From Prorocentrum cordatum (lineage: Eukaryota), in NCBI GenBank assembly GCA_963575745.1, contig CAUYUJ010000114.1:186001-250000 (forward strand): a stretch of DNA of 64,000 bases, given 5' to 3'. A program made the position numbers and the translations under genes. Numbering within the stretch: position 1 is the stretch's first letter; each line of letters starts with the position of its first letter. The notes beneath the pieces are model-generated. The model was not told the DNA's origin, did not search any database, and saw only the letters and a list, made by a program, of their open reading frames with translations. Shown here piece after piece: positions 48,676 to 64,000 of this stretch.

Positions 48676-51252
48676 TCAGGCGGACTGGCCTATCCCTTGC
48701 GCAATGGCTGCGAAGACCTGCGACGGCAGCGCCTGCACCTCTCCCCCGAGGTCACCACTCCCGCCAGCCCGCCCTGGGGGCCCAAAGATCTGGCGCTCGA
48801 GATCCTCACCGAGGGCCACGTTCAGGGCGGCGACATTGGGGATCTGCTGCGGGAGCAGGCCAACCGGCGGCGGCGGCACCGCAGGGGGCGCCGTCAGCTG
48901 CGGCGGCGGCGGCGGGGCCATGATGGCCGCCAGCGGGGCTCCAGCAGGCGGCGGCGGCGGGCCCTGGCCGCCGCGGGCCGAGCCATCGGGGAAGCGCTGG
49001 CGGCGCGGACGGGGGGGGCACGCGGGGCGACCCCGGTGCCGCCCCCGCCGCCCGCGAGGCTGCCCTCCAGGAGGTTGTGGCGGCGCTCGTAGTCCGCCAA
49101 TTCCGCGTGCGCGGTCGCCAGGCGCTCCCTCTTGGCCTTCTTCCGCTGGCTCTTGCTGTAGCCCGCCCAGGCTGGATCGTTCAGCCCCCAGGCAACCTGC
49201 GAGTACAAGTCGGACCACTGGAACTCAGGCAGGTTGTCCCAGGAGAGCCCGTCCATTAGCACGTGGTGGCCCTCCCACTGCGGCTGCAGCGGATCGTAGC
49301 GCTTAAGGGCGGTGCCCACCGCCAGCGGCTCGACCTTGGGCAGGTGCTTCAGGAGGTCCACAGCGCTGAGCACCGCTACCCCCTCCTTCTTGAGCTTGTC
49401 GCGACGCAGCAGAGCCTTCAAGTCGCGGATGCCCTCCTGGGGGAAGTCCGCGTGCATGTAGTACGCGCGGGGCGGGCTCAGCTCTTCCTCTATCATCTCG
49501 ATACAGACGCCGTAGGAGGTCGTGTAGCGCGCGCCACAATGGCAGTGCCAGCGCTGGCCAGACTCCCCCGCCGCCCCCTGCGCACAGGTGAGCAGTTGCG
49601 CCCAGTGATCCGAACGGATCACCGAGCAGCATCCCTTGGGATTGTCCCAGGTCTTGTTGGCCGAGCACTTGTAGTACATGTTGAACGTAAAGCCCTTGCC
49701 GCGATAGAGCTGGTCCGTGTAGTCGCCCATCCGTCGGTGGGCCTCCTGCGCCATGGCGTTGCCCTGGCACTCCTCCTTCCACGCGCGCCTGTGTCCCAGG
49801 TGCGCGTCCACGACCTCCAAGGCCTCCAGGAGGCCCTTCTTCAGCCTCACCGCATCATCCTCTGCCTCCGCACCCAGCGCGCCGAGCCACTTCTGAGCCC
49901 CGCCCTGCGCCGCCGCGCCCTTCACCACGTCCTCTTTCTTCTCCAGGATGGGCCCCATGCCTCCCAGCATGCGGGCGCGCATGGTCTCGAATTTGAGGAC
50001 ACCGCAAGCCCGCGCCATACGCTTCAGCGATTTCTTGGAGAGGCCGAGCCGCAGCAGGGGCTCGACATCCGCGACCTCCTCCACAGTCTTGGCGTCGACC
50101 AGCTGGCGCCCCTGGCCCTCAGCGTCGTTGTCGAGCAGGGGGTCGCTTTCATCACCACGGGGAGGGTCTGTGGCGCCAGGTCCATCCTCGAAGGGTGGAG
50201 GTGGCGCGCGGGGCGGCCCCGGCACCACCTCCACCGTCATCGGGCGACCGACCTCCTGCGCCACCGTCTCCGTGGCCGGAGGGGCGCCCACGCCCTCCGG
50301 GGCGATGCCCACCCCGACGCCTTCCGTCGCCCTCCGCAGGGCTGGCAGGCCGTCGTTGGAGAGCGCGTAACCCACGAGCACGTCCATGCCCTCCTTGATG
50401 TGGTCGAAGCTCGCGCGGAACTTCGCCACGCGCTTGGCGGCTTAGCTCCCTTGTTCTGGCGCGCCGCGTGCGTCGCAGCCTCGTGCTCGGGGATGCCCTG
50501 CGCCGCCGCCACGCAGCGCGAGCGCGTGTGCAGTTTGCATTGGCCTTGATCCCCCTTCCGCAGCTTGGGGCGCTGAGGGTTGTGCTCTGAAACTGCGGCG
50601 TAGCGGCGCATTTCGCCACGTTTGAGCTCGTCCACGTACTCCACCATCATGACCTTCCAGTCATCCAGCTCAGCGCACTCACGACACCAGCCCAGGCGCT
50701 GCGGCGGGAGCCAGTGCGCACCCATGCAGTGCACGTAGCCCGCCGCGAGGTAGTCCACGCCCGTCATCATCTCAGCGTCCTCGAGCTCAGCGGCCGCGCC
50801 GCCGCTCGGTGAGGGGGCTTTGCCGTAGGCGGCCTTGTTGCTGCGACGGCGGTGGCGTTTGCCGCCGCGCCCGCTGAGGGCGCCCGTGGTCGCCGCACTC
50901 GGGGCCTCACTGGCGGTCTCACCGCCCCTGAGGCGGCAGCCGTCGGCGTCGCTGCGCGCGCCCCGCCCGCCGTGGCCGCTCACAGACTGCCCCCGCCGCT
51001 GGAGGTTGCGGAGCGCGAGGGCGATCGCGTCCAACCCGCGGCGCTGCTCCACGGTGAAGTTGGAGTAGGTGGCCGCCGCCGCCAGGGCCGCCTTCGTCAC
51101 TGGCACCACCGCCGACGGGGGCATCGCCGAGGGCTCAGCGGGCGCCCTGGCCGTCGCCGCGGGGGCGCCGTCAGAGGCACCGTCAGAGGCAGCGGCGCTG
51201 GGGGCGGCCCCCGCACCGCTGCCTCCGTCGGCACCCTCAGCAGGCGTCGCCG
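48676..51252 (-). pseudogene. Intronless hypothetical gene with Cys motifs, frameshifted, between two (CTA)n tracts
   Basis: ORF 50237..51124 is open to the microsatellite edge at 51252 and joins ORF 48894..50429 at ~50440. Motifs WCREC and YYKC...CCSVIRSDHW...QRWHCHCGARY; the probable C-terminus is in frame 48676..49218. Confidence 0.5.
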
Positions 51253-51358
51253 ACTACTACTACTCGTACAACTACAACTGCTACGACTACTACAACTCCT
51301 ACGACTAACTGCGACTACTACGACTACTACCACTACCACTACTACGACGACGACAACG

Positions 51359-51951: not shown

Positions 51952-52184
51952 GACTGCTGCTGCTGCTGCTGCTGCTACTACTACTACTACTACGACGACT
52001 ACGACTACGACTACGATTGCTAATACTACTACGACTACTACTACTACTACTACTGCTGCTACTACTACTACTACTACAGCTACGACTACGACAACGACTA
52101 CGACTAGGACTGCGAAAACGACTGCGACTACTACGACTACTACTACTACAACTACTAATACTACTACTACTACCACTAGTACTA

Positions 52185-52225
<41 letters not shown>
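51253..52225. repeat. (CTA)n/(CTACGA)n microsatellite
   Basis: Directly visible. Confidence 0.97.
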
Positions 52226-52226
<1 letters not shown>

Positions 52227-52329
52227 GGGCTGACCGGGGGATGGTGGCCGGGCAGTTCGTCCGTGAGACGACTTAAGGGTGGTGATGGAAGTTTCGCGTT
52301 TCCAACGGCTTTAACAAACAAAAAGAAGA

Positions 52330-53225
52330 TTGTGGGTGTGGGTGTGGGTGTGGGTGTGGGTGTGGGTGTTGGTGTGGGCGGGGTGTGGGTGTTTCATGTA
52401 AGATGTATGATGATGTATGATGATGTGAGATGGTGTATGATGTTGTACGATGATGTATGCTGATGTATGATGGTGTACGATGATGTATGATGATGTATGA
52501 TGTTGTGCGATGATGTATGATGATGTATGGTGTTGTACGATGATGTGTGATGATGTAATGATGTATGATGACTGTTGTGTGGCGTTTGATTATGTTAGAT
52601 GTATGGTGATCGATGGTGTATGATGTTGGATGTTTGATGTTTGATGTTGAACGATTTCGGATGTTTGACGTTTGAGGTTTTATGTTAAAGGATGTTGGCT
52701 GATGCTTGATGTTTGACGTTTGGTAGTTGTTGACGTGTGATGTTTGATGATTGTTGATGTTTGATGTTTGATGATGTATGATGTTTGGTGTTTCATGTTT
52801 GATGATGTTTGATGTATGTATGATGTATTATGATGTATGACGCATGGTGTACGATAGTGTATGACGGTGCATTATGATGTATGGTTTTTTTTGTTGTGTA
52901 TTATGATGTATGATGTATGATGTTTGGTGATGTTGTATGATGTATGATGTTTGATGATATATGATGTTTGATGACGTATGATGTTTGATGGTGTACGATG
53001 TTTAATTATGTAGGATGGTTGATCATGCATGGTGTATGTACAATGTTGTACGACGCATGATGGTGTATGGTGTATGTGTAATGTTGTATGGTGAATGATG
53101 GTAGGGTGTATGTATAAAATTGTACGATGTCTGATGATGCATGCTGCATGTATAATGTTGTATGGTGCATGGTGATGTATGATATATGTCTCATGTTGTA
53201 TGATGAATGATGTTGTATGGTGTAT
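52330..53225. repeat. (GGTGTG)n followed by (GAT)n/(GATGTAT)n simple repeats
   Basis: Directly visible. Confidence 0.9.
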
Positions 53226-53244
53226 GTATCACGCCTTCGTCGTC

Positions 53245-53680
53245 AAGCCTCCCAGGAGGCTTCCCAGGAGGCCCTAGAGGCCTGTCAGGAAGCCCTAGAG
53301 GCCTCTCAGGAGGCCCCAGAGGCCTCTCGGAAGGCCCAAGAGGCCTCTCAGGAGGCCAAAGAGACCTCTCCGGATGTCCGAGGGGCCTGTCGGGAGGCTT
53401 AAGAAACCTCACAGGAGGCCCAAGAGGCCTCTGAGGAGGCCCCAGAGGCCTCTCAGGAGGCCCCAGAGGCCTCTCAGGAAGCCCAACAGGCTTCTCAGGA
53501 GGCCAAAGAGGCGCTCCGGATGCCCAAGGGGCCTCTCAGGACGCCAACGAGGCCCCCCAGGAGGCCCAAGAGGCCTCCCAGGAGGTCCAAGAGGCCTCTC
53601 AGGAAGCCCAAGAGGCCTCTCAGGAGGCCTCTCAGGAGGCCCAATATGTCTCTCAGGAGGCCCAAGAAGCCTGCCAGAAG
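53245..53680. repeat. 21-bp minisatellite GAGGCCTCTCAGGAGGCCCAA, truncated by the LTR
   Basis: About 20 diverged units ending abruptly at 53680. Confidence 0.9.
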
Positions 53681-53853
53681 TGTGTGAGGGTGAGGAGGAC
53701 CAATGGACCGACCCCACCCCCGAGTGTCCGTCGGTAGACGATGAGGGACGATGGTTTTACCCAACGTACCTCCAAGTATCGAGTACCTGTCATCCGAGCC
53801 AAGAGGGGCGATGGATATGAGCAAGATAGGAGGAAAGTAGGGGGATTCACACA
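53681..53853 (-). repeat. Putative 3' LTR (~173 bp) of the copia element
   Basis: Bounded by the 7-bp inverted repeat TGTGTGA (53681-53687) / TCACACA (53847-53853). Preceded on the minus strand by G-rich CGGGCGGGATCGGGACGGGG (PPT-like) and abuts the satellite. Confidence 0.55.
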
Positions 53854-54612
53854 CACACCCCGTCCCGATCCCGCCCGATGCCAACGCACAAAAGCGAAAG
53901 GCACCGAAGCGGGGATCGGGATAGGAGAGTGAATCTCTACTGAACTCCTGTCTGCAATCCACTGCTTCGGCCCAGGAAGGAAAGGAAGGGACAGCCAAAG
54001 CTCTGTCGTAAGGTTCGTACCCAACGGCGGCGCTAACCTGCAAAAAGTTTTACAGCGCCAGCCGCCGAGATAGAACCCAGGACAGTGCTGTGGGCTGGAG
54101 AGAAGTGGAATGGAGAGACTGAACTCTTATGACACCGACCCAAACGGTCGGTGCCCGAAGCAACACATGATAATCATGAATATGAAGTCTTCAATCCAAT
54201 ACCAAATCAAAGTAATCAAATCAGTCACGGTACGAGGGTGGTGAAAATCTTTTTATGCAAGTTCCATATCCAATCTGTACCAGATGCAATATGTACGTCT
54301 TGCCACAGTTCAAATCTAAAGGATATTTATGCAATTGTGCATTATGCGATTTTTTTTTTTTGAATCTATATGAGTAGTATTATCCCATCATGAGGATAGC
54401 TGTCACCATAAACTTTCTCACAGTTGTTGAGTCCATGAAGAGGAAGAATCCTTGAAGTGATATACTGATCAAAAGGTAAGTGCGAGCGTCCTCGAATACT
54501 ACATGTCATCGAAGAAAATGATATAATGCATCAATAGGCACATCAACAATACGATAAAGTTGGAAGCCATTCAAAATCTTATGGGCGGCATGGCAACCAG
54601 TTTCCTGGTGCG

Positions 54613-57600
54613 TCAGCGTGGAGGGTCCCAGCGCCATGATCTGCCCGTATATTTCCCCGATATGTACTTCTTATTCCATGCAGTCGCGCCCCATCCATTA
54701 TTGACGAACGGATCCCACGCTTTGATCCAGATGAACTCGCCCCAATGGTCGTACCACTGGCGGTCATACGGTGCAATTTGCCTGTCATAATAGTGGGCAC
54801 CGTATTCAGCACTGTACCCGTGGGTCACATTCGAAATGGCGGGGCGCTTTGCCAGAGGTGGTCCATCATCGGGACGCGCAGGCGCATATCTGGCAGCGGA
54901 GGCGGTATGGCCATGGCTGTCGAACGCGCCGGAAGAAGTACGATACTCGGATGTGTGTGGTGGTGGCTGGGGGGTTGGATCGGTCCCGCTCCCCCTAAAG
55001 TCACCCCCACTACTGCTTCCTGGAGCGTTGCCGCTGCGGTTTCCCGCTGCACTGGCGGTCTCCTGAAGCTGAGAGTAGTATTCTTCGCGCTCTCGCTTAA
55101 CACCGGATCGGATCTCGTCCCGGGACCCAGTCAAAGACTGTGGGTGTGCACGAATTTCTGCGGCGGTGATGGCACCGCGGAGAGATTCGCCCGGGACGTG
55201 AACGGTAAGGTGGTTGCGCTGAAAACGTTCACGAAGTGTTTCGGCTCCAAGGTTCGGCGCTCCGACCTCTTTCCTCTTTTTGGAGGCCTGCCAGAGGCGA
55301 TCGGCCTCAGTGGCAACTTCTAACGTCCATGCAACCCTACCAGCCTGAGTCCGAACTGTCGTCATCTGCTCACGAAACTCATCATCCTCCGCAAAGCGCT
55401 GTGCTAGAGACATGTATGGATGATACATGGGAGGATAATTTGGATTCTCAGGCGGGATGCCGTCCGCGTCGGCGTCTGCACGTAGCTTGTCGCACTCCTC
55501 CCGAGATGGAGAATTCCAAGCTAGCCACTTCTGATGCCGTTTGTCAGCTTTCTTCCCCATGTTTTGAAGCTCGTCTTTAGCGTCTGTCTGTGGCTTCTTC
55601 GAGCCACGCGTATCAATGGGGGCAGCTGTGATGCGCTGGGCGACGTCATCCGGCTGAGTGGCGGCAAACGCAACGAACTGTTCTCGCCAGGCCGCAACTT
55701 CGTCCGGCCATTTGGAGTTCTCGTACCTCATGCAAAAGGCACATTTCAGAGTGGCCCCAGGCGTGTCCAAATCAGCTGGCATCCGAGCGTTGCAAATTGC
55801 GCAAGACGGGATGCGAGTCTGTAGCTCTGGAGGTGCCAGTCCTGTGCTCTCGTCGAACTGAACGACCCCTGCGAGCAGGGTCGCGAAATTCTCCTGAGAT
55901 ACGCTCCCACCTGGCGCAGAGACGATTTGGCGGGCCCGATCGAGGTGATCAGGTTCAAGTGGGGCAAAGATCTTCTCGTCGTCTTCGTCCAAGATCTTGT
56001 CAAGGTCGCTGCGGTTTCCCGCTGCACCCTGAGACTCGGCGGAGGCGGAAGCAGCGACAGCCTGGTATGCATCTTGGAGAACTTGAGTGGCGAGTGTGCG
56101 TTGTGATAACTGTGAACCAACGACAGATTCAATAACGGTTTTGGTAGCCTCCACATTGTCTTGCGATGCTAGGGTTTCCCCTTGCTTCGTAGCCAATGTG
56201 GAAATCTTTCCGTCGTGGGGCGCCTCATTCACGAACTCATCCTCCACATAGGTCTCTGTGCCCATGCGGAGTGCAGCAAGGCCAGGATGATTCTGCACAA
56301 CCTCGGCGTTCTCAATGTCGATGAGTGCAAATTTGTCGCCAGCCTGCTGGTAGAGGTTCAAGTATGCCATGGCGCACCATGAACGTCTGCCGTATGCCAG
56401 GGTTCTGTATCGGAAAGTACCAATGCACTGGAAAAGGTACTTTGTGAAAGCTCTGTGTCCACATTGGTCTGGGAAACGGTGACACCATGGTGCATCGCAG
56501 TTGAACTCGAAGGTCATTGTTGTATTTGCGATATCGTCCATGTTCAAGACAACGGTGTACTCCATGGTCTGCTTCACTTTGGTGTTAACGACACCGTGAT
56601 GCCCAGATCTACGAACAATGTGGACTTTCTTGACTGCTTTGAAATAGTCTGGTAGGTCGGACTGATCTGGTCCATATGTGAGAGTTTTCTCCGCGTTATC
56701 CTCCATTGTTTCGATTTCATTGCGGATATCATTCAGCTCTGGGGACCAGTCATCCTTCTTGAGGAAGTCATCATCAGCATGTTCTGGAACATGTGGCACA
56801 GTGTCACCATTGCTGCGATTTCCCGCTGCGCCGTCATCATAACTTTCCTCTGGAAAATCCGTTGGTACAGGGATTTCGGTCGGCGAGCTCTGGTCCTGTG
56901 TGGGGACCGGCATCTCTGTAGGTGAACTGTGATCGTCTGCCGCCAGAGGGTGATCCTCCGCTGCCGGCGGAGGATAGTCGGGCGAGTGTGGAGTGATAGT
57001 CGGCGACGGAGGGTCAACTGCCATTGGTGTCGGTTCTGGTACGACTGTCGGCGATGACTGGGCCGGAGGTACATCGTCAGTGGGCACGTCCAAAGACTGA
57101 GGGCTCCTGATCAATTTAAGCAATTCACCTGGCTCAGCTTCACGAGCATCTATGTCGGCGACCTCCTCAACCTCTGGGGGCTGTTGACTGGGGGCGCTGC
57201 GGTGTCCCGCTGCACTAGAGGCGTCTGTATGCCTCTGGCGCAGTGGAGCACGAAGATCTCCCACAGCCCTGACGTCACTGGTCGGCGTCATGATCGCATG
57301 ACGGGGTGGAAAGTTAACTGGGGGACCGAAGCGAAGGTCATCTGGGAGTGAGTTGGCGTCAAAGTCTGGGCAAGGTACAACGCGGGCAAGCGTGTTGCCC
57401 GCAAGCATGCCCTTCGTGCCATCCCAAACGTTCATCCAGTGATCTCCGATTTTCACGGTCACGTATCCCATGAACTGGCCTACCTCGCGAATGGGTCCGA
57501 ATAGGGATCCCATTGGTTCGCCTTCATGAGGGCTAACGCGCTCGCCAACCCAGGAACCATCTGAGTGTTTCGATGGCGGGTGAGAGTAAAAGTAGCAAGC

Positions 57601-60600
57601 TTGTCTTGTTTGAACGTAGTCTCCAATCCGATAGGTCTCGTGGGGACCCATGGGCGGCCAGGCTGACGTGATGTGGCTAACGCGGCCCTCAGTGGCAGCC
57701 TGTAGAAACCATTGGTCGTAACGCTCGTGAATCTGACGATTACGCTCGCGCTCCTGGTCTGTTGTCAACTGCGAAGCTGCGGTTTCCCGCTGCATAACAG
57801 TTGGTATAGAGACGTCAGGGGCGGATGTGTCGCCAGACTCGTCACGATGTGCTCGGATCGGGGGTGCCACAGGGCGGATGTTAACCAACCCGACGGCCTT
57901 TCTAGCCGCTGTTAAGGCATTGATTGCATCAGCGAGTCTACTCTGTGTCCTCAGCAGCGCGGCCTCGGACTTAGCAAGGGCGGCTTCCCTCTCGGTGGCC
58001 TTCTGGGCAGCAGCCGCGGCCGCGTTGTGTGGGTCTAACGTGAGGCCCTCAACTCCCTCGGAGACTTCTTCCACGGCTGTATCTCTCGGCGCGGCGGTCT
58101 CCCGCTGCTCTGCTGCGATCTCTCGCTGCACGTGCGGGGGGGCCGAAGCGATGGGAGTGTGTGCCGGTGGAGGTCCTGGGGGGAGCGGCGGAACAGGCGG
58201 CGAAGCCTTGGCAATACCTTGTCCAGGTACAGCTCCCACTGGTGGCGGCGCATGCCGTGGTGGCGGTGGTGGAACCCTGTTGTCGCCCACGACCTGGCCA
58301 GGATACACGTTGGGAGCGATCGGCGGCGGTAACTCTCCTGGAGGAGGTCTGCCGACGCCTTCTGGTGGCGGGGCCTTCCTCTGGGGTGTCTTGGGAGCAC
58401 GTTGCCCAGGCTGGCCTGGCTGGAGTGGAGTCGGAGGCGGAGGCGGAGGCGGTGGAGGCTTCTTTGGCACATCGTTGCCTCGAGCCAGGGGTCTGGGCTT
58501 GTGCAAAGTCGGAGCAGACGGTTTAGGTGGGGTTGGAGGTGCAGCTGCGGTTGCCCGCTGCGCATCGCCCCACGGGTTATTGCCATGGCCATACACTTGC
58601 CATGGCCACGAAACTGTGGAGCGCTCATACTTGGACCGTGGCTCAGAATCACGAGGAGGTCTGGCCAGGTCGTCGTCGTCTGGGCGCCCCCAGATTATTT
58701 TGCCGGTAGCGATGTTCCTGCAACGAATAAGACAATGTACTGGGATGTCGCGTTCTGCCATTATCGCGCCCTGTTTACCCTTCCACCAAGTGATGCCAGC
58801 CGTAGCGCATTTCTGATGGTCAATCTGAAATTCACACTGTTTCTTAGCGGAATGAAAGACGTACGGCGGTATGGTGGTGTAGGGGTTCTGGCCGCAAGAG
58901 TGAGAGAAAGGATGAGCGGAGGCAAAGACCTCGGCACGGGTTGCCCCATGCTTGTGGTCTCGCTTGTCGAATCCTTTGATTATGCCTGGGTTAGACCTTG
59001 GTGAGCCTTCGGTAATGCTCCGCACTGAAGACAGCTCGGTTGCGTGCCAGAGATATGGAGTGTCATGAACAGACAACTCCTCCCAACCCATGTTGTGGGC
59101 TGTGGAATATGGGTGCACCTCGGACTGACCACCTGTGCTTCGTATGGCCAAGATGCGGCCGAACGGAAACGTAAGTGGATTGAGGTCAGAGCCGACGGGT
59201 GCAAACACTTCTGTGCGCGACTTTCCATCTGCATGGTATTGCAGCATACGAATGGCCATGTAACAATAGTAATCGGCCAAGTCGATGTAGTCACCATTGT
59301 CACGCTCAGTTTCCCAACACGCTAGGACGGCCTCGTTCGTGGGTGTCTTGCGGTATTCCCATTTCTCCTTCTTTTTGTGGTAGTATTCTTGCTGGCTGCG
59401 CTGCCAGCAATTCATCGCACACTCTCGAAAGGTGGATGTCTTGGAAAAATCGATGTTCAGACGCCGATCGTGATATGCGTTGGTCACTCCACTTGTGTGA
59501 CGGAGTATCGTCATGAGAAACTTGCTAAACTCCCAGCGTCCGAAGTCGCATCCATCAGGAAGAGGTGGGCCGTATGGGCAATCTCGCCATGGGGGCAAGG
59601 CGATCCACTCATATGCTCCCTCGAACCAGCGGCTGCCGACGAGATCGTCGGCGTATTTGAGCACGTGAATGTCCTGTTCATTGGTCAGGCGCCGCGGGTC
59701 GTTCTCGGGGACATTGTCCGGGATTGTTCTGCGAAGCAGTGGATCGACATCAAAAATGACAATGGCATTTGGATGATCGGGATCAATCAATGCTAACTCT
59801 CGTGGGGTCTTCCATCTGTCCATGTCATCTGTACGCTTCTTGACCCCGGAGAAGTAGCATGCCCGCTGTGGTGTCAAAACTTCGTACTTGGACGATGTCT
59901 CTTCGGCTACGGTTTCCCGTTGCAAGACCGTGTCATCGTCCTCGGACTCAGCGGTCGTCATCGGGTGGTTGTCCATCCACTGCTGGGCCTCCGGGTTGAG
60001 AGCCATTTCTTCCGCCAATCGGAGGTGCCGGGCATCGCCTTTACCGTTCTTCATAAGGTCAGGGTCGAGCAGGTAAAGGCCGGCGTAAATGGCGGCACAC
60101 AGTCGTGCGTGTCTCTCGCGCCAGGAGGTCTCGGATGTGCATTCCATGTAGCCAGTGATCCAAGAGTTACGGTCTGGTCCAAGCGATTTATTACGAGTGT
60201 CCTGGAGAAGGCCTCGGTATAATTTGGACATCTGAGAAACATGATCGGCCATGACATAATCGTCCTGAGTCATCACTAATGCATATGTCGGGTCAGCCGT
60301 CGTGTCCTCTGTGACTGGCAAGAAGGTAATGTCACCTTCTTGGTTCAGAACGGCGCGCATCCCAAGGTCCTCACGCTGCTGAATAGATTCTGCGTTGGAA
60401 GCAAAGGCCGTGGTTGCGCGCGTGGATGTCTCGTCTTCGTTTTTCATACCAGATCGCTTAAGATGTGCTGTGATCATTTTGGCGATCTCGGGAGCGACGG
60501 TAGGCGGGGCGGCGGCTGTAGCAACGGTTTCCCGTTGCACAGCTGCGGTGTCCCGCTGCTTGGTCCAATTGCAGAGGTTATGAGCGGCACGCATGCACAT

Positions 60601-63600
60601 CAACTCATTGGTCTTCGCACGATCAACGTTTGATGCTGAAACGTGATCGTATAGACTCTGGATGTGTACTTGACGATGGTGCCACGCGATCAGCAACATG
60701 TGGGACAAACTATGAGATTGTGGCTCATTAAGCGGCTTCACTGCGGGCTGTTTGAAAGCGTAGAACTGACTTGGCTTAGAGTTCATTACGCCGTAAAGGT
60801 TCTTGAGTGTTGCAAAGGTGACCCATTGCGCAGCGAAGCGAGCCCAATTCGCACCTGTCTTCTGGCAGTGCCATCCATCATCCTTGGTGCGATCCATAGC
60901 TTGTGTCCATGCCGAGTTGTTGATCACGGAAATACCACGTGTCTGCATAAGGATGCACATATCTTTCGAGATGGTGTCGAAGTGGTGAGGTAAGCCCCAA
61001 TCTTTGGCCGTGCCAGGGCCAATGACGTGAGGATGTTTATACCAGTTCGCAACGTCGCAAAATCTATCAAGGCCGATAGTGATATGCGGCATCATCTCGA
61101 GCAGGCATCCTTCTTGTGCTTCCCACTTGCGTTGGTACGCACGGTGGTCCCGTCTCTCCCAACCCAGGTCCACTCTTTGGGCATCGACGCTTTTCTGATT
61201 GTAGTCTGGGAACGTGATGTCATTGTTGTTCCACCAGAAAGTGGCAGTGGCACCACGCTCATACCACAATTGTTTGTAATGAGCATCAAGGTCGGCCCAA
61301 GTGTCCCATAGGGCTTCATCCATGTCGAAGTAGCGTTTTCTTTGAGCGGTGTCCATATTCTGGGCGCGCATCTCTCTGAGCGTGGCGATTCTTTCGAGGA
61401 TATCACGATGGAGACTCCAGAGTGAAGAATCAATACCATCAATGGTGGTGCCTTTTTCAGCGTTGGTGATGATGATTCGTTTCCTCTCCGATGCGCGCTG
61501 GTCCAGGCGCTGAAGCTCTGGGACAAGGCTCAGGTCTTTGTAGTCTTCATCGGACGAACCCTCGGGGCGCTGAGGAAGATCCGTGCCTGGCTGCACGACG
61601 TGATCATCCCAGAATCCTGGAATGTAGGAGTAGAACCAGTCCAGGATACAGTCCCGAGCCGCGGAAGCTAGAGTAGCGAGAGTGGCTCCTCCCATGTACT
61701 CTTGATGCACTGGGGTTGGGACGAGTAGCGTTGAGAAGGGTTGTCCAACTTGGCGAATACAATCATAACTGCACAGCATGTTGATGGCCTCTTCAGGCGT
61801 ATGGTAATTCTTGCTGGCTTTTCCCATCATAGGTCCCGAGTCGGTGAAGATGTAGAAGAATGGGGTGGCAGTGCCTGTAGGTCCAAGGGCATGGTTAATG
61901 GATAATCCAAGATCCTCTGTGGCGATCTGCATCCAGCCATTCTCATCCGCGAAGCATTTGAGCACGGAAGCGTTGGTCCACGTGTGATGCTTAGCGTGAT
62001 CGAAGTCAATGAAATCGTTAGTACTGTCACCGCGGGATGTAGAGTCGACACAAACCAACAAAGGGTCGGAAGCCAACAAAGGAAAAATCTGTTGGTTGTG
62101 TGATGGGCATCCGAAGATGTTTCGCCTTTGGTGTCCCGGGGCCCAACCACTAGTACGAACGGGACTCTCGTTCGCCTCAAGATCCTCACGCCAGGGGTCA
62201 TCACCGCTGCGGTTTCCCGCTGCGTACCGATGGCTACCTGTGTCGGTGAGGCTAGCGATGGCAATGGGGCGAGACAAGTGGCCCCCAGATCCGCACGGCG
62301 GGTCCAAACGACAACTGCCCCCTCCTATGTACTGGACATGGTGTTTAGGCGAAGCCGTTCTCATGTCACTGTTGAGGTCTCGAGCGGGGATGTCGATGAA
62401 CGAGTTGTAGCTGTTTTCCACGAACGAGCCAACCGAACCTGCGCAGTCGCTCTTGTGTGGAAGAGCTTTTCCGTGTGTCAATCCAGAAGAGGGCCGCTGG
62501 ACACCAAAATTATGTCCGTGGTTGGGCGTGTCAAGGCTGTCTAGACCTAATGGGCGATGCTCCTTTTTGTACATGTTATATGTGTCGTCAAGAGAAGAGC
62601 TCACCCATCCACCAATGGCGGTGGATCCAACTGTAGGCCATGCACCTTGGAGTCCTTTCCACAAGGACGTGGCGGCGTGTGAGAGGCACTCAAGAGATGG
62701 CATCAACGGTGGCTCGCTGCGGTCTCCCGCTGCTATGCTGCGGTCTCCCGCTGCACGGCCGAGAGCCTCGGTGCGAAGCCAGTTGAAGTGTTGAACGATG
62801 CTCTCCAATTGGTCACTCATATCCTGGTCGAGGCAAGCCTTGGCTACATACGAATGCAGAACAGCAAAGAATGAAACCCAAGGGAGTGTCGTCTCCTGCA
62901 ACAAATTTTGCATCGAAATCTCAACATCCATCTCGACGGCGTTACGAAGGTCTTTGCGTGAGCATTCAAAGAAGCAAACGCCAGAGCCCTCTGGTGCCTG
63001 AGTAAAAGCTATCGGGAACTTATTAGGGCCTGCCCACGGTAGCTGAGTATCGAACGCAGCTCCAACAGTGGGTCGAATGATTGGTCCGTCTGGAGGAAGA
63101 GTGCAGGCTGGGCGCTGGATCATCGGAAAGGCACGATTGAAACGTAGTGTCCCTACCGTGATGTCAACCATGTCAACGTCCTGGTCATCGCCGCCCTCTA
63201 GCGGGGGTTGCCCTCCGCGTGGAGCGATAGGGTTACCCCCTGAGCTCGATGCGGTGCCCCGCTGCATGCTGCTGGGGGGGGAACGAGACCGATCCTGCAA
63301 CTGTGTGTTTGAGCCGCCTACCGCGCCGGGGCCGGGCGGGGCGGCCGGAGTTTCCTCCGCTTGGGAAGAAACGCTGCGGTTATGCATAACATCTCGTATG
63401 ACAAGAGTGCGTAATGGTGAAGAAGAGGATGGATCAGGGGAAAACGATGTCGAAAAACGGTGACCTGTATCAACCTTACGCCTAGGTCGGGTCGGGCTCT
63501 TAGCCCGGGTCGGTCCCGGGTCTATCTTGGCCCGGGTCGGACTCTTCTGAGGAGACTTGCGGCGTTGTCGCGGGGACTTGGTCCGTGCCGAACGCGAAGC

Positions 63601-63999
63601 GTTGGACCCGGCTGTGATGCTGTGATGATGTCCACATGAGTGTAAACCCTCGTGATTAGGGCAACTAACACATCTCTTACCACATGCTGATCCAACGTCG
63701 CCCCAGGGGTCCTTGGAAGTGAGAGCAACTTCACAGAAGCCCGAACATCCTGGAGGTTTTGGGGGGTCGGCGGAGCGCGGTAGACCGTTGGGTGTAGTCC
63801 CCTCGTCCTCCGTCATAATATGTTGACGCATGCCCTTATTCAATGATGGCGAAGGACGAATGAGCGCAAGCTCGAGAAGTGTTTCCCAAACATTACTCTT
63901 TTTGGAGTCGAAATGTTTTGTCATCATGTCCGCAACTTGTTCCTTAGTACCTACGTGTGACAAATGTATTTGTTCATGTTGACAGACTTCCACGATCCA
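54613..63999 (-). CDS. pol: Copia Pol polyprotein, 5'-truncated by the window: RNase H end plus ~3,080-aa in-frame extension (Cys/His cluster, SGNH-like, Tpt1/KptA-like, Pro-rich, Zn ribbon)
   Basis: Uninterrupted 3126-aa ORF, open to the window edge; begins with the copia RNase H motif TxxQxADxxTK. Confidence 0.85.
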   Translation of the reverse strand, partial: WIVEVCQHEQIHLSHVGTKEQVADMMTKHFDSKKSNVWETLLELALIRPSPSLNKGMRQHIMTEDEGTTPNGLPRSADPPKPPGCSGFCEVALTSKDPWGDVGSACGKRCVSCPNHEGLHSCGHHHSITAGSNASRSARTKSPRQRRKSPQKSPTRAKIDPGPTRAKSPTRPRRKVDTGHRFSTSFSPDPSSSSPLRTLVIRDVMHNRSVSSQAEETPAAPPGPGAVGGSNTQLQDRSRSPPSSMQRGTASSSGGNPIAPRGGQPPLEGGDDQDVDMVDITVGTLRFNRAFPMIQRPACTLPPDGPIIRPTVGAAFDTQLPWAGPNKFPIAFTQAPEGSGVCFFECSRKDLRNAVEMDVEISMQNLLQETTLPWVSFFAVLHSYVAKACLDQDMSDQLESIVQHFNWLRTEALGRAAGDRSIAAGDRSEPPLMPSLECLSHAATSLWKGLQGAWPTVGSTAIGGWVSSSLDDTYNMYKKEHRPLGLDSLDTPNHGHNFGVQRPSSGLTHGKALPHKSDCAGSVGSFVENSYNSFIDIPARDLNSDMRTASPKHHVQYIGGGSCRLDPPCGSGGHLSRPIAIASLTDTGSHRYAAGNRSGDDPWREDLEANESPVRTSGWAPGHQRRNIFGCPSHNQQIFPLLASDPLLVCVDSTSRGDSTNDFIDFDHAKHHTWTNASVLKCFADENGWMQIATEDLGLSINHALGPTGTATPFFYIFTDSGPMMGKASKNYHTPEEAINMLCSYDCIRQVGQPFSTLLVPTPVHQEYMGGATLATLASAARDCILDWFYSYIPGFWDDHVVQPGTDLPQRPEGSSDEDYKDLSLVPELQRLDQRASERKRIIITNAEKGTTIDGIDSSLWSLHRDILERIATLREMRAQNMDTAQRKRYFDMDEALWDTWADLDAHYKQLWYERGATATFWWNNNDITFPDYNQKSVDAQRVDLGWERRDHRAYQRKWEAQEGCLLEMMPHITIGLDRFCDVANWYKHPHVIGPGTAKDWGLPHHFDTISKDMCILMQTRGISVINNSAWTQAMDRTKDDGWHCQKTGANWARFAAQWVTFATLKNLYGVMNSKPSQFYAFKQPAVKPLNEPQSHSLSHMLLIAWHHRQVHIQSLYDHVSASNVDRAKTNELMCMRAAHNLCNWTKQRDTAAVQRETVATAAAPPTVAPEIAKMITAHLKRSGMKNEDETSTRATTAFASNAESIQQREDLGMRAVLNQEGDITFLPVTEDTTADPTYALVMTQDDYVMADHVSQMSKLYRGLLQDTRNKSLGPDRNSWITGYMECTSETSWRERHARLCAAIYAGLYLLDPDLMKNGKGDARHLRLAEEMALNPEAQQWMDNHPMTTAESEDDDTVLQRETVAEETSSKYEVLTPQRACYFSGVKKRTDDMDRWKTPRELALIDPDHPNAIVIFDVDPLLRRTIPDNVPENDPRRLTNEQDIHVLKYADDLVGSRWFEGAYEWIALPPWRDCPYGPPLPDGCDFGRWEFSKFLMTILRHTSGVTNAYHDRRLNIDFSKTSTFRECAMNCWQRSQQEYYHKKKEKWEYRKTPTNEAVLACWETERDNGDYIDLADYYCYMAIRMLQYHADGKSRTEVFAPVGSDLNPLTFPFGRILAIRSTGGQSEVHPYSTAHNMGWEELSVHDTPYLWHATELSSVRSITEGSPRSNPGIIKGFDKRDHKHGATRAEVFASAHPFSHSCGQNPYTTIPPYVFHSAKKQCEFQIDHQKCATAGITWWKGKQGAIMAERDIPVHCLIRCRNIATGKIIWGRPDDDDLARPPRDSEPRSKYERSTVSWPWQVYGHGNNPWGDAQRATAAAPPTPPKPSAPTLHKPRPLARGNDVPKKPPPPPPPPPTPLQPGQPGQRAPKTPQRKAPPPEGVGRPPPGELPPPIAPNVYPGQVVGDNRVPPPPPRHAPPPVGAVPGQGIAKASPPVPPLPPGPPPAHTPIASAPPHVQREIAAEQRETAAPRDTAVEEVSEGVEGLTLDPHNAAAAAAQKATEREAALAKSEAALLRTQSRLADAINALTAARKAVGLVNIRPVAPPIRAHRDESGDTSAPDVSIPTVMQRETAASQLTTDQERERNRQIHERYDQWFLQAATEGRVSHITSAWPPMGPHETYRIGDYVQTRQACYFYSHPPSKHSDGSWVGERVSPHEGEPMGSLFGPIREVGQFMGYVTVKIGDHWMNVWDGTKGMLAGNTLARVVPCPDFDANSLPDDLRFGPPVNFPPRHAIMTPTSDVRAVGDLRAPLRQRHTDASSAAGHRSAPSQQPPEVEEVADIDAREAEPGELLKLIRSPQSLDVPTDDVPPAQSSPTVVPEPTPMAVDPPSPTITPHSPDYPPPAAEDHPLAADDHSSPTEMPVPTQDQSSPTEIPVPTDFPEESYDDGAAGNRSNGDTVPHVPEHADDDFLKKDDWSPELNDIRNEIETMEDNAEKTLTYGPDQSDLPDYFKAVKKVHIVRRSGHHGVVNTKVKQTMEYTVVLNMDDIANTTMTFEFNCDAPWCHRFPDQCGHRAFTKYLFQCIGTFRYRTLAYGRRSWCAMAYLNLYQQAGDKFALIDIENAEVVQNHPGLAALRMGTETYVEDEFVNEAPHDGKISTLATKQGETLASQDNVEATKTVIESVVGSQLSQRTLATQVLQDAYQAVAASASAESQGAAGNRSDLDKILDEDDEKIFAPLEPDHLDRARQIVSAPGGSVSQENFATLLAGVVQFDESTGLAPPELQTRIPSCAICNARMPADLDTPGATLKCAFCMRYENSKWPDEVAAWREQFVAFAATQPDDVAQRITAAPIDTRGSKKPQTDAKDELQNMGKKADKRHQKWLAWNSPSREECDKLRADADADGIPPENPNYPPMYHPYMSLAQRFAEDDEFREQMTTVRTQAGRVAWTLEVATEADRLWQASKKRKEVGAPNLGAETLRERFQRNHLTVHVPGESLRGAITAAEIRAHPQSLTGSRDEIRSGVKREREEYYSQLQETASAAGNRSGNAPGSSSGGDFRGSGTDPTPQPPPHTSEYRTSSGAFDSHGHTASAARYAPARPDDGPPLAKRPAISNVTHGYSAEYGAHYYDRQIAPYDRQWYDHWGEFIWIKAWDPFVNNGWGATAWNKKYISGKYTGRSWRWDPPR
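58690..59540 (-). other. kptA: Tpt1/KptA RNA 2'-phosphotransferase-like domain within the Pol extension
   Basis: In order: FSKFLMTILRH (SKxLSxxLRH), DGKSR (DxKxR), AIRSTGGQS (IRAxQGHS), YLWHAT (LYHGT), GIIKG...RAEVFAS (GLxxxxRxxVHxS) and FQID....GITWWKGKQGAIMAERDIP (IDxxxxxxxGIxFxxSxNGVxLxxxIP). Confidence 0.8.
60800..61870 (-). other. SGNH/GDSL hydrolase-like domain within the Pol extension
   Basis: Four blocks in canonical order: FYIFTDS (block I Ser), MGGATL (II Gly), WWNNNDI (III Asn) and DDGWH (V Asp-x-x-His). Confidence 0.6.
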
Positions 64000-64000
64000 A

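Follow-up and report, generated by a model that had tools for sequence, protein, structure and literature searches.

An 18-nt GNNA hairpin repeated through the coding strand of a Ty1/copia retrotransposon in Prorocentrum cordatum: a candidate dispersed signal on the element's RNA

The stretch of DNA analysed here (64,000 nt of Prorocentrum cordatum, contig CAUYUJ010000114.1 of assembly GCA_963575745.1, positions 186,001 to 250,000; hereafter the window, in whose numbering all positions are given) contains on its minus strand part of a Ty1/copia long terminal repeat (LTR) retrotransposon, covered from the tail of the RNase H to the 3' LTR, with gag and the upstream part of pol lying beyond the window (Table 1). 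The first 48 residues of its long open frame form the end of the RNase H, as judged by comparison with P0035 and P0036, both of which carry the full upstream motif (EDNQAVI..HLHRTHRI, continuing to ..ADMMTK; a motif that we take to be that of copia RNase H) and are 66–70% identical to the first 55 residues of the frame; the tail itself had no Pfam match and no match to a PDB sequence. The host of the hairpins described below is thus a Ty1/copia element in which RNase H is the last domain of pol. In P0035 the RNase H also continues in frame, without a stop, into a matching Cys-rich segment, so that the in-frame extension is not private to the window copy; P0036 diverges soon after the RNase H domain. 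The closest protein was CAK0816555 (Prorocentrum cordatum, 95% identity over the best segment), and no full-length protein relative of 1,720–5,474 amino acids (aa) was present among 7,997 candidates. The public gene models CAK0816554-7 (P0002/P0031–P0033) join pieces of a sister copy to host dioxygenase-like exons, which is likely an annotation artefact. Among the substitutions listed in the frame (35, from 40 of 1,225 rows), 21 fall on third, 10 on second and four on first codon positions, an excess indicating that the frame has been under purifying selection.

Dispersed through this frame is an 18-nt hairpin motif. A scan with its consensus, allowing up to three mismatches, returned 15 matches, all on the minus strand (mean of 100 shuffles 0.13, largest 1, none reaching 15) and all within the single frame 63999..54613, hence on the coding strand. 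These are the copies listed in an original prediction made from the letters of the window, and their coordinates proved exact, with 0–3 mismatches to the consensus; as that prediction had also stated, they are read in two codon phases (seven of 15 in phase 0, as AAG.RS, and eight in phase 2, of the QR.TAA type). Folding gives a stem of seven pairs, usually with an A.A mismatch at positions 3/16, and a 4-nt loop; the stem of four pairs first proposed is corrected accordingly, and the stem variants and G-N-N-A loops are as claimed. Information content is 1.3–2.0 bits inside the 18 bases (0.5 at loop position 10) and at most 0.8 in the 12 flanking bases on each side. When the resulting format, GC-N5-GNNA-N5-GC, was sought by structure only, four variants were added (63201, 60812, 58934 and 56168; null mean 0.38, none of 2,000 shuffles reaching four), one of them in phase 1, so that fifteen is the count of near-consensus copies and not, as first supposed, of the full set, which has at least four more members and stands at 19. 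Their loops are GNRA in 15 of 19 and GNYA in the other four, giving GNNA as the rule, and the loop-closing pair is G-C in 17 of 19. GNNA hairpins that do not fully fit the format are also present at 63226-63243, 63344 (-) and 55021 (-), and 63248, 63226 and 63201 form a triplet with a spacing of 22–25 nt.

Table 1. Features of the retrotransposon in the window. Fractions such as 4/15 in hairpin rows denote paired positions of the 18-nt unit.
Feature	Positions	Strand	Basis or remark
Open frame, 3,128 codons	54613..63999	-	copia RNase H tail, then stop-free extension of ~3,080 residues; open at window end
C-terminal tail of Ty1/copia RNase H (KEQVADMMTKHF)	63856..63999	-	70% / 66% identity to P0035 / P0036
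Hairpin, phase 2, loop GGCA, outer pair 2/17 broken	63248..63265	-	consensus scan
Added variant, phase 1, loop GCAA, mismatch 5/14	63201..63218	-	structure scan
Doublet (62737 + 62716), phase 0, 21-nt period	62716..62754	-	consensus scan
Hairpin, phase 0, exact consensus	62206..62223	-	consensus scan
SGNH/GDSL-like alpha/beta fold with helical insertion, aa ~733-1069	60793..61803	-	VIA-align
Added variant, phase 2, loop GTCA, inside last helix of SGNH-like fold	60812..60829	-	structure scan
Doublet (60542 + 60521), phase 2; 60521 with two-sided change 4/15, pairs 3/16	60521..60559	-	consensus scan
Hairpin, phase 2, two-sided change 4/15	59906..59923	-	consensus scan
Tpt1/KptA-like (ART-fold) domain, aa ~1640-1775	58675..59082	-	Foldseek; Pfam in relatives
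Added variant, phase 2, fully paired with one U.G, in loop of Tpt1-like domain	58934..58951	-	structure scan
Hairpin, phase 2, loop GCAA	58544..58561	-	consensus scan
Doublet (58112 + 58091), phase 2; 58112 with two-sided change 7/12	58091..58129	-	consensus scan
Hairpin, phase 2, exact consensus	57776..57793	-	consensus scan
Hairpin, phase 0, loop GACA	57196..57213	-	consensus scan
Hairpin, phase 0, G.U at 7/12; missing from a run X5 contig	56812..56829	-	consensus scan
Added variant, phase 2, two-sided changes 4/15 and 5/14, A.A mismatch kept	56168..56185	-	structure scan
Hairpin, phase 0, exact consensus	56008..56025	-	consensus scan
Hairpin, phase 0, exact consensus, after 3' half of a decayed copy	55033..55050	-	consensus scan
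3' untranslated region (UTR), AT-rich, no format hairpin, no clear polypurine tract	54173..54612	-	format scan, purine count
3' LTR, about 492 bp, ends ..CACA, no format hairpin	53681..54172	-	contig loose ends

Conservation of the motif lies at the nucleotide level, as had been proposed. With the protein held fixed, 1,000 synonymous-codon shuffles gave an expectation of 2.0 matches (maximum 6) against the 15 found, and for the format with free stems 16 were found against 0.3 expected, with none on the antisense strand; the consensus base occupies 67 of 73 degenerate third positions within the motif. A repeat at the protein level is ruled out by the codon shuffle and the three phases, and similarity is confined to the 18 bases. 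A search for any seven-pair stem (at most one mismatch) around a G..A loop found 17 in the frame (null 1.4, at most 6 in 500; one on the antisense strand), every one of which starts and finishes with GC although this was not required, and among the 16 classes of first and last loop letter only G..A was enriched, with 17 occurrences against 0–3 in each of the other 15. Segmental duplication was rejected because the flanks are unlike, apart from one doublet, and target-site duplication of GCAGC because its 13-nt period would shift the frame.

Because the 15 near-consensus copies were chosen on sequence alone, and not on pairing like the four added ones, they provide a fair test of pairing. All seven of their inner-stem changes keep the pair, three of them as two-sided changes from G-C to A-U and one as a G.U, in agreement with the covariation originally claimed; with seven random transitions under a transition-only null, P is 5.5e-5 for three two-sided changes and 0.013 for all pairs kept (1.3e-3 and 0.04, respectively, when 60521 and 59906 are counted as one event). 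Each two-sided change combines a silent and an amino-acid change (A>V twice, T>I). The G and A of the loop are altered in 0 of 30 cells and the two middle bases in 9 of 30, the outer pair is broken in one copy only (63248), and both CpGs are invariant in the 15 copies. Over all 19 copies, four pairs have two-sided changes, with a covariation score of 0.284 against 0.115 (0 of 500 shuffles), a partly circular figure that gives no independent probability, pairing having been the criterion for the added copies and the copies being related. A double-stranded DNA site, either the quasi-palindrome or two GCAGC direct repeats, recognised by an element or host protein on the integrated copy, would suit the two GCWGC-like halves of the motif; we nevertheless hold it to be extremely improbable, since the two-sided changes and the four variants alter both halves and yet pair, the orientation is strict and the G..A loop is fixed.

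Signs of how the copies spread are also present. There are three doublets, each with a 21-nt period. Two of them, at 62716-62754 in phase 0 and at 58091-58129 in phase 2, share 91% identity over 43 nt and differ by a two-sided stem change; the doublet has therefore been copied over 4.6 kb into another reading phase, so that copying and selection both act. A decayed half copy stands before 55033, and in a contig of run X5 the 55 bases at 56774-56828 are replaced by seven letters (net -48, in frame), with loss of the 56812 copy. The flanks of the 12 clusters contain fewer order-promoting residues than the frame average (0.22 vs 0.30, P 0.006), and the spacing, at about one copy per 0.6 kb, is evener than random (coefficient of variation 0.54; P 0.032 for the 12 clusters and 0.014 for the 15 copies); the frame shows no significant blocking of phases (P 0.07 and 0.11). 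On either side of the folded domains of the extension stand near-consensus copies, and two variants lie inside these domains (at aa 1057 in a helix of the SGNH-like fold and at aa 1683 in a loop of the Tpt1-like domain), which suggests ready-made units in linkers and locally adapted units in cores. The preference for linkers and absence from the SGNH and Tpt1 cores that had been described consequently hold for the 15 near-consensus copies, and the absence fails for the two variants.

Short palindromes in frame within genes are known as REP and as Rickettsia palindromic elements (RPE), which are scattered over unrelated host genes and on both strands, whereas in the window the array is confined to a single strand of a single element. 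A neutral mini-repeat of this passenger kind, spreading by slippage or reverse-transcriptase copying and tolerated since 18 and 21 nt keep the frame, would explain the tandem doublets, the one long-range copy, the decayed half copy and the loss in a relative, and tolerance alone predicts the linker bias. It does not predict that seven of seven stem changes keep pairing, three of them two-sided, nor that four variants retain the format with new stems, two inside folded domains; a single strand is used in 12 of 12 clusters (P 5e-4), two CpGs are constant in 15 copies, and there is no surplus of decayed copies at 4–6 mismatches. The neutral explanation is thus strongly disfavoured and we leave it a very small chance. 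The number, strand, format, pairing-preserving changes, copying between phases, linker bias and even spacing of the hairpins and the identity of their host element are established, and the array is very probably a selected single-strand hairpin signal of some kind. To that extent the cis-acting signal of the original prediction stands, as the shuffles and pairing tests indicate a nucleotide-level, single-strand, structure-dependent signal in a copia element. Dimerisation by kissing loops, which had been among the suggested functions, is unlikely, GNNA loops not being self-complementary. Ribosomal frameshift signals were set aside in view of the single continuous frame. Helitron 3' terminal hairpins have CTRR shortly downstream; CTRR lies within 25 nt of two of the 19 hairpins (background 0.24), and Helitron terminators were likewise rejected.

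Copying between phases also bears on the proposal that the hairpins are template-switch or recombination sites at which reverse transcriptase shuffles cargo domains between or within elements. Besides the near-identical doublets in phases 0 and 2, the X5 indel stops at the edge of a hairpin, hairpins flank both the SGNH-like and the Tpt1-like fold, and most of the informative contig ends lie near hairpins. Contigs of four runs (X1, X3, X4 and X5) were compared over 53660-64000, and 24 of 44 loose ends were considered; with six at the LTR and ten in a proline-codon repeat set aside, seven of the eight informative ones lie at most 32 nt from a hairpin edge and three exactly on it (background 13.6% and 0.4%). 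Other sequences in the runs therefore share the hairpins and not their wider surroundings, and these may be short chance matches, recombinants, other elements with the motif, or diverged relatives whose best-preserved island is the hairpin. Read by hand, the X4 letters that run loose at 62737 continue in frame, with four of ten residues matching the helix after the window doublet, a pattern that would suit a diverged relative having a single hairpin at this site. Diverged relatives, or other elements sharing the hairpin alone, account equally well for the loose ends, none of the three listed long joints in the four runs is hairpin-to-hairpin (contigs drop rare variants), the phases are not significantly blocked, and recombination depends on sequence identity, for which neither two-sided stem changes nor an invariant G..A loop is needed. 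Template switching, another function originally suggested, is accordingly weakly supported and in our judgement unlikely.

Traces of the array among relatives were sought at the protein level. In 28 distant relatives there were 16 hairpin-compatible peptides against 9.9 +/- 2.8 expected (two of 100 shuffles reach 16), which is suggestive only. In P0005 (27% identity) such a peptide aligns with the doublet at aa 423 and there is none at aa 593, a weak indication, and P0002/P0033 keep five motif peptides, as expected at 82–95% identity. None of the 35 listed substitutions falls in a hairpin against 1.3 expected, a difference that is uninformative.

Outside the element, the remaining 53.7 kb of the window contained no consensus match with three or fewer mismatches, and the antisense strand of the element had none either. 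The loose format gave two matches on the plus and eight on the minus strand in the rest of the window (null 1.9 and 2.6, maximum 6 and 9), six of the ten belonging to two host repeat families with longer stems that are not members of the array. In one of these (15291 on plus, 31061 and 31128 on minus) the stem has 11 pairs and the loop is GAAA or GCTA, its inner part fitting GC..GNNA..GC; in the other (19070, 19325 and 25533, minus) covarying GCA..GCYA..TGC hairpins stand in a conserved unit of ~80 nt. Rfam 15 gave 26 matches at E<=10 in 52000-64000, none at the gathering score. The motif scan returned 29 single matches in viral contigs and at least 120 in metagenome contigs, and among the 149 loci listed there were three with two matches (up to three mismatches), no array and no tblastn match to the protein. 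Protein-guided scans of viral contigs and prokaryote genomes returned no relative (one 29% match, E 9e-4, was disregarded), and the doublet pattern in prokaryote genomes matched two Streptomyces 13-nt tandem repeats, which are unrelated. Elsewhere in the window, at 48894-51253 (minus), CTA microsatellites enclose a pair of long open frames, of 515 and 338 codons, which have Cys/His-rich motifs and are probably another mobile element.

The ends of the 3' LTR were placed from contigs that depart at 53681 in three of the four runs (X1, X4 and X5) and at 54172 in two (X3 and X4); in X1, summed contig depth is greater over the LTR stretch than in the interior of the element. On the minus strand the LTR begins TATCATGTG or TGTG (5 nt uncertain), and it folds into long hairpins (-221 kcal/mol, a value without shuffle control). 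The letters beside 53681 in X1, X4 and X5 are GGTTATCAGCC on the minus strand, adjoining the other LTR copy. They resemble what we take to be the anticodon-arm primer sites of Ty5 and Drosophila copia, and have C where an initiator-Met match would presumably have G. Priming of Ty5 is treated in PMC5371799. The element is inserted into a GC-rich satellite (53240-53680) of palindromic units of ~21 nt, which yields many sub-threshold microRNA-like Rfam matches.

The extension comprises SGNH-like, Tpt1-like, Cys-rich and proline-rich parts. For the SGNH-like fold, the best VIA-align match was the esterase 3hp4 (Z 8.4, root-mean-square deviation 3.6, 161 aligned), below which many GDSL/SGNH chains follow at Z 5–7, the model being of low confidence (mean pLDDT 57.5); Foldseek returned nothing at E<=0.001 and there was no Pfam match. 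For the Tpt1-like domain, Foldseek ranks 1–22 were all Tpt1/KptA (best E 4.7e-4), the match spanning mainly the NAD-binding lobe, and Pfam PF01885 was found in three of 11 aligned relatives (best E 5.2e-6) and at E 0.047 in the window piece. The predicted structure thus supports a Tpt1/KptA-like fold in the extension, and fold comparison backs the Tpt1 label of the original prediction and, tentatively, its SGNH label, though Pfam cut-offs give neither in the window protein. Early in the extension, 63430-63600 (minus) encodes basic SP-rich repeats (SPQKSPTR-type), a possible nucleic-acid binder, and P0035 has SP-rich repeats of a similar kind right before its RNase H motif. The ESM Atlas returned no named family for two queries.

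Among the closest known systems are the dispersed packaging signals of single-stranded RNA viruses (MS2, parechovirus) and of hepatitis B virus (HBV) (PMC6281560, PMC8472981), which are likewise many short stem-loops with a common loop motif and a bulge or mismatch, scattered over coding regions of the genomic strand. Those signals are degenerate and were found by SELEX or cryo-EM, whereas the array consists of near-identical 18-mers visible by eye, spreads by copying, is carried by an LTR retrotransposon and is known here from sequence alone. With Ty1 (PMC4974528) and Symbiodinium SmTCL1-4 (PMC5776459) the window element shares the LTR and an RNase H ending pol, and it may share a primer site of anticodon-arm type beside the other LTR; the packaging signals of Ty1 are 5'-terminal and its interior dispensable, whereas in the window element pol continues for ~3,080 residues bearing the array. 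In the bdelloid rotifer LTR retrotransposons with a GDSL/SGNH ORF3 (PMC5408684) an SGNH-type domain likewise lies downstream of pol, although there as a separate ORF3 and with an integrase after RNase H; here the SGNH-like part follows a copia RNase H as an in-frame fusion that also includes a Tpt1-like domain. The word 'hairpin' does not occur in the available part of the bdelloid paper, nor 'hairpin' or 'stem' in that of the paper on the SmTCL elements, which are dinoflagellate copia elements. The I-factor localisation signal (ILS; PMC13186709) is also a coding-sequence stem-loop in a retrotransposon that serves as an RNA tag and needs a bulge, but it is single-copy, longer, host-read and in a non-LTR element. 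Searches of full-text literature, outside most subscription papers and all supplements, brought up no description of repeated hairpins arrayed in LTR-retrotransposon coding sequence, and the array is apparently undescribed in print.

Our best explanation, to which we give somewhat less than an even chance, is that the hairpins are dispersed protein-binding tags on the genomic RNA of the element, serving its selection and compaction. Assembly driven by dispersed stem-loops with a common motif is described for single-stranded RNA viruses and HBV (PMC6281560), and by analogy the array, which has dispersed, motif-sharing stem-loops with covariation within the element, may work in the same manner. 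The RNA would be the working molecule, bound by a protein, and the purpose would be packaging: each 18-nt unit would act in cis on the sense RNA, with its seven-pair stem, G-C pairs at both ends, one tolerated mismatch and GNNA loop, as a putative site, about every 0.6 kb, for a single protein. The likeliest binder would be the Gag/nucleocapsid of the element itself or some other RNA-binding protein that it encodes, and cooperative binding at many sites would select and compact the unusually long genomic RNA for particle assembly. New copies would arise by copying within the element, probably through slips of the reverse transcriptase, 18 and 21 nt preserving the frame in any phase, would settle mostly in linkers, where six added residues are harmless, and would then be held by selection on pairing. 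That the sense RNA is the acting strand we infer mainly from the fixed G..A loop (GNRA in 15 of 19); RNA fold energies also favour sense (-8.3 vs -7.3 kcal/mol for antisense). In local folds of 168 nt, the inner-pair probability exceeds 0.65 for 12 of the 19 hairpins.

Several observations weigh against packaging tags. The covariation consists of few events inside one element, among copies that are related by copying and hence not independent, and the other seven of the 19 hairpins fold poorly in their local context. A relative without the 56812 copy means that single copies are dispensable, and there are no copies in the 932 nt of 3' UTR and LTR, where about 1.6 would be expected (not significant). 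The packaging sequences of Ty1 are found in its 5'-terminal 580 nt, and its interior tolerates deletions of as much as 5 kb (PMC4974528), so that copia packaging in general does not need interior tags. Neither do the wobbles decide the strand, being split 2:2 (two G.U in sense; two A.C, that is G.T in antisense), and DNA fold energies slightly favour antisense (-5.1 vs -4.8 kcal/mol for sense).

That DNA folding does not favour the sense strand would suit a signal in single-stranded DNA during reverse transcription, namely a pause, a start of the plus strand replacing the polypurine tract, or a site on strong-stop-like intermediates. No clear polypurine tract precedes the 3' LTR (at most nine purines per 12 nt within 90 nt upstream of an LTR start uncertain by 5 nt), and the four GNYA loops of 19 suit the GNNA family of DNA loops as well as RNA. 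Very stable DNA GNNA loops, however, require a C-G closing pair, whereas the pair here is G-C in 17 of 19, and single-stranded DNA is short-lived in the LTR cycle; we think such a role quite improbable. Sense-RNA hairpins could, alternatively, serve some other RNA step, such as nuclear export, transport, stabilisation or the shielding of a very long coding RNA, and be recognised either by a host protein or by part of the extension itself, for instance the Tpt1-like domain or the basic SP-rich segment. The structural and strand evidence is common to this explanation and to packaging, solved Tpt1 relatives bind RNA and DNA ends, and the I-factor ILS, a stem-loop in the coding region of a retrotransposon, is known to bring in the transport machinery of the host (PMC13186709); the ILS is, however, one long stem-loop and not ~19 short identical ones, and nothing points to a host binder, so that we rate another RNA step as rather unlikely.

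A bolder form of the packaging explanation, which we find doubtful, may be put as follows: giant dinoflagellate copia elements would carry in their coding sequence a self-copying RNA barcode, of a family-specific 18-nt GNNA spelling, seeded at intervals of ~0.6 kb through newly captured cargo by reverse-transcriptase copying and read by the element's own protein to pick and compact its own oversized RNA and no other, the sites doubling as points of domain swapping. The choice of RNA by LTR retrotransposons is poorly defined, even for Ty1, and hairpins that are near-identical, countable and removable by synonymous recoding allow a direct test, in a retroelement, of whether RNA is recognised cooperatively at many sites. 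If packaging tags are indeed what they are, assembly mediated by packaging signals would extend from RNA viruses to the Pseudoviridae, a compact hairpin-protein pair would become available as a possible RNA tag, and it would be easier to explain how copia elements can carry an extension of 3,000 residues; if the barcode is real as well, the tagging of new cargo would be what lets these elements grow.

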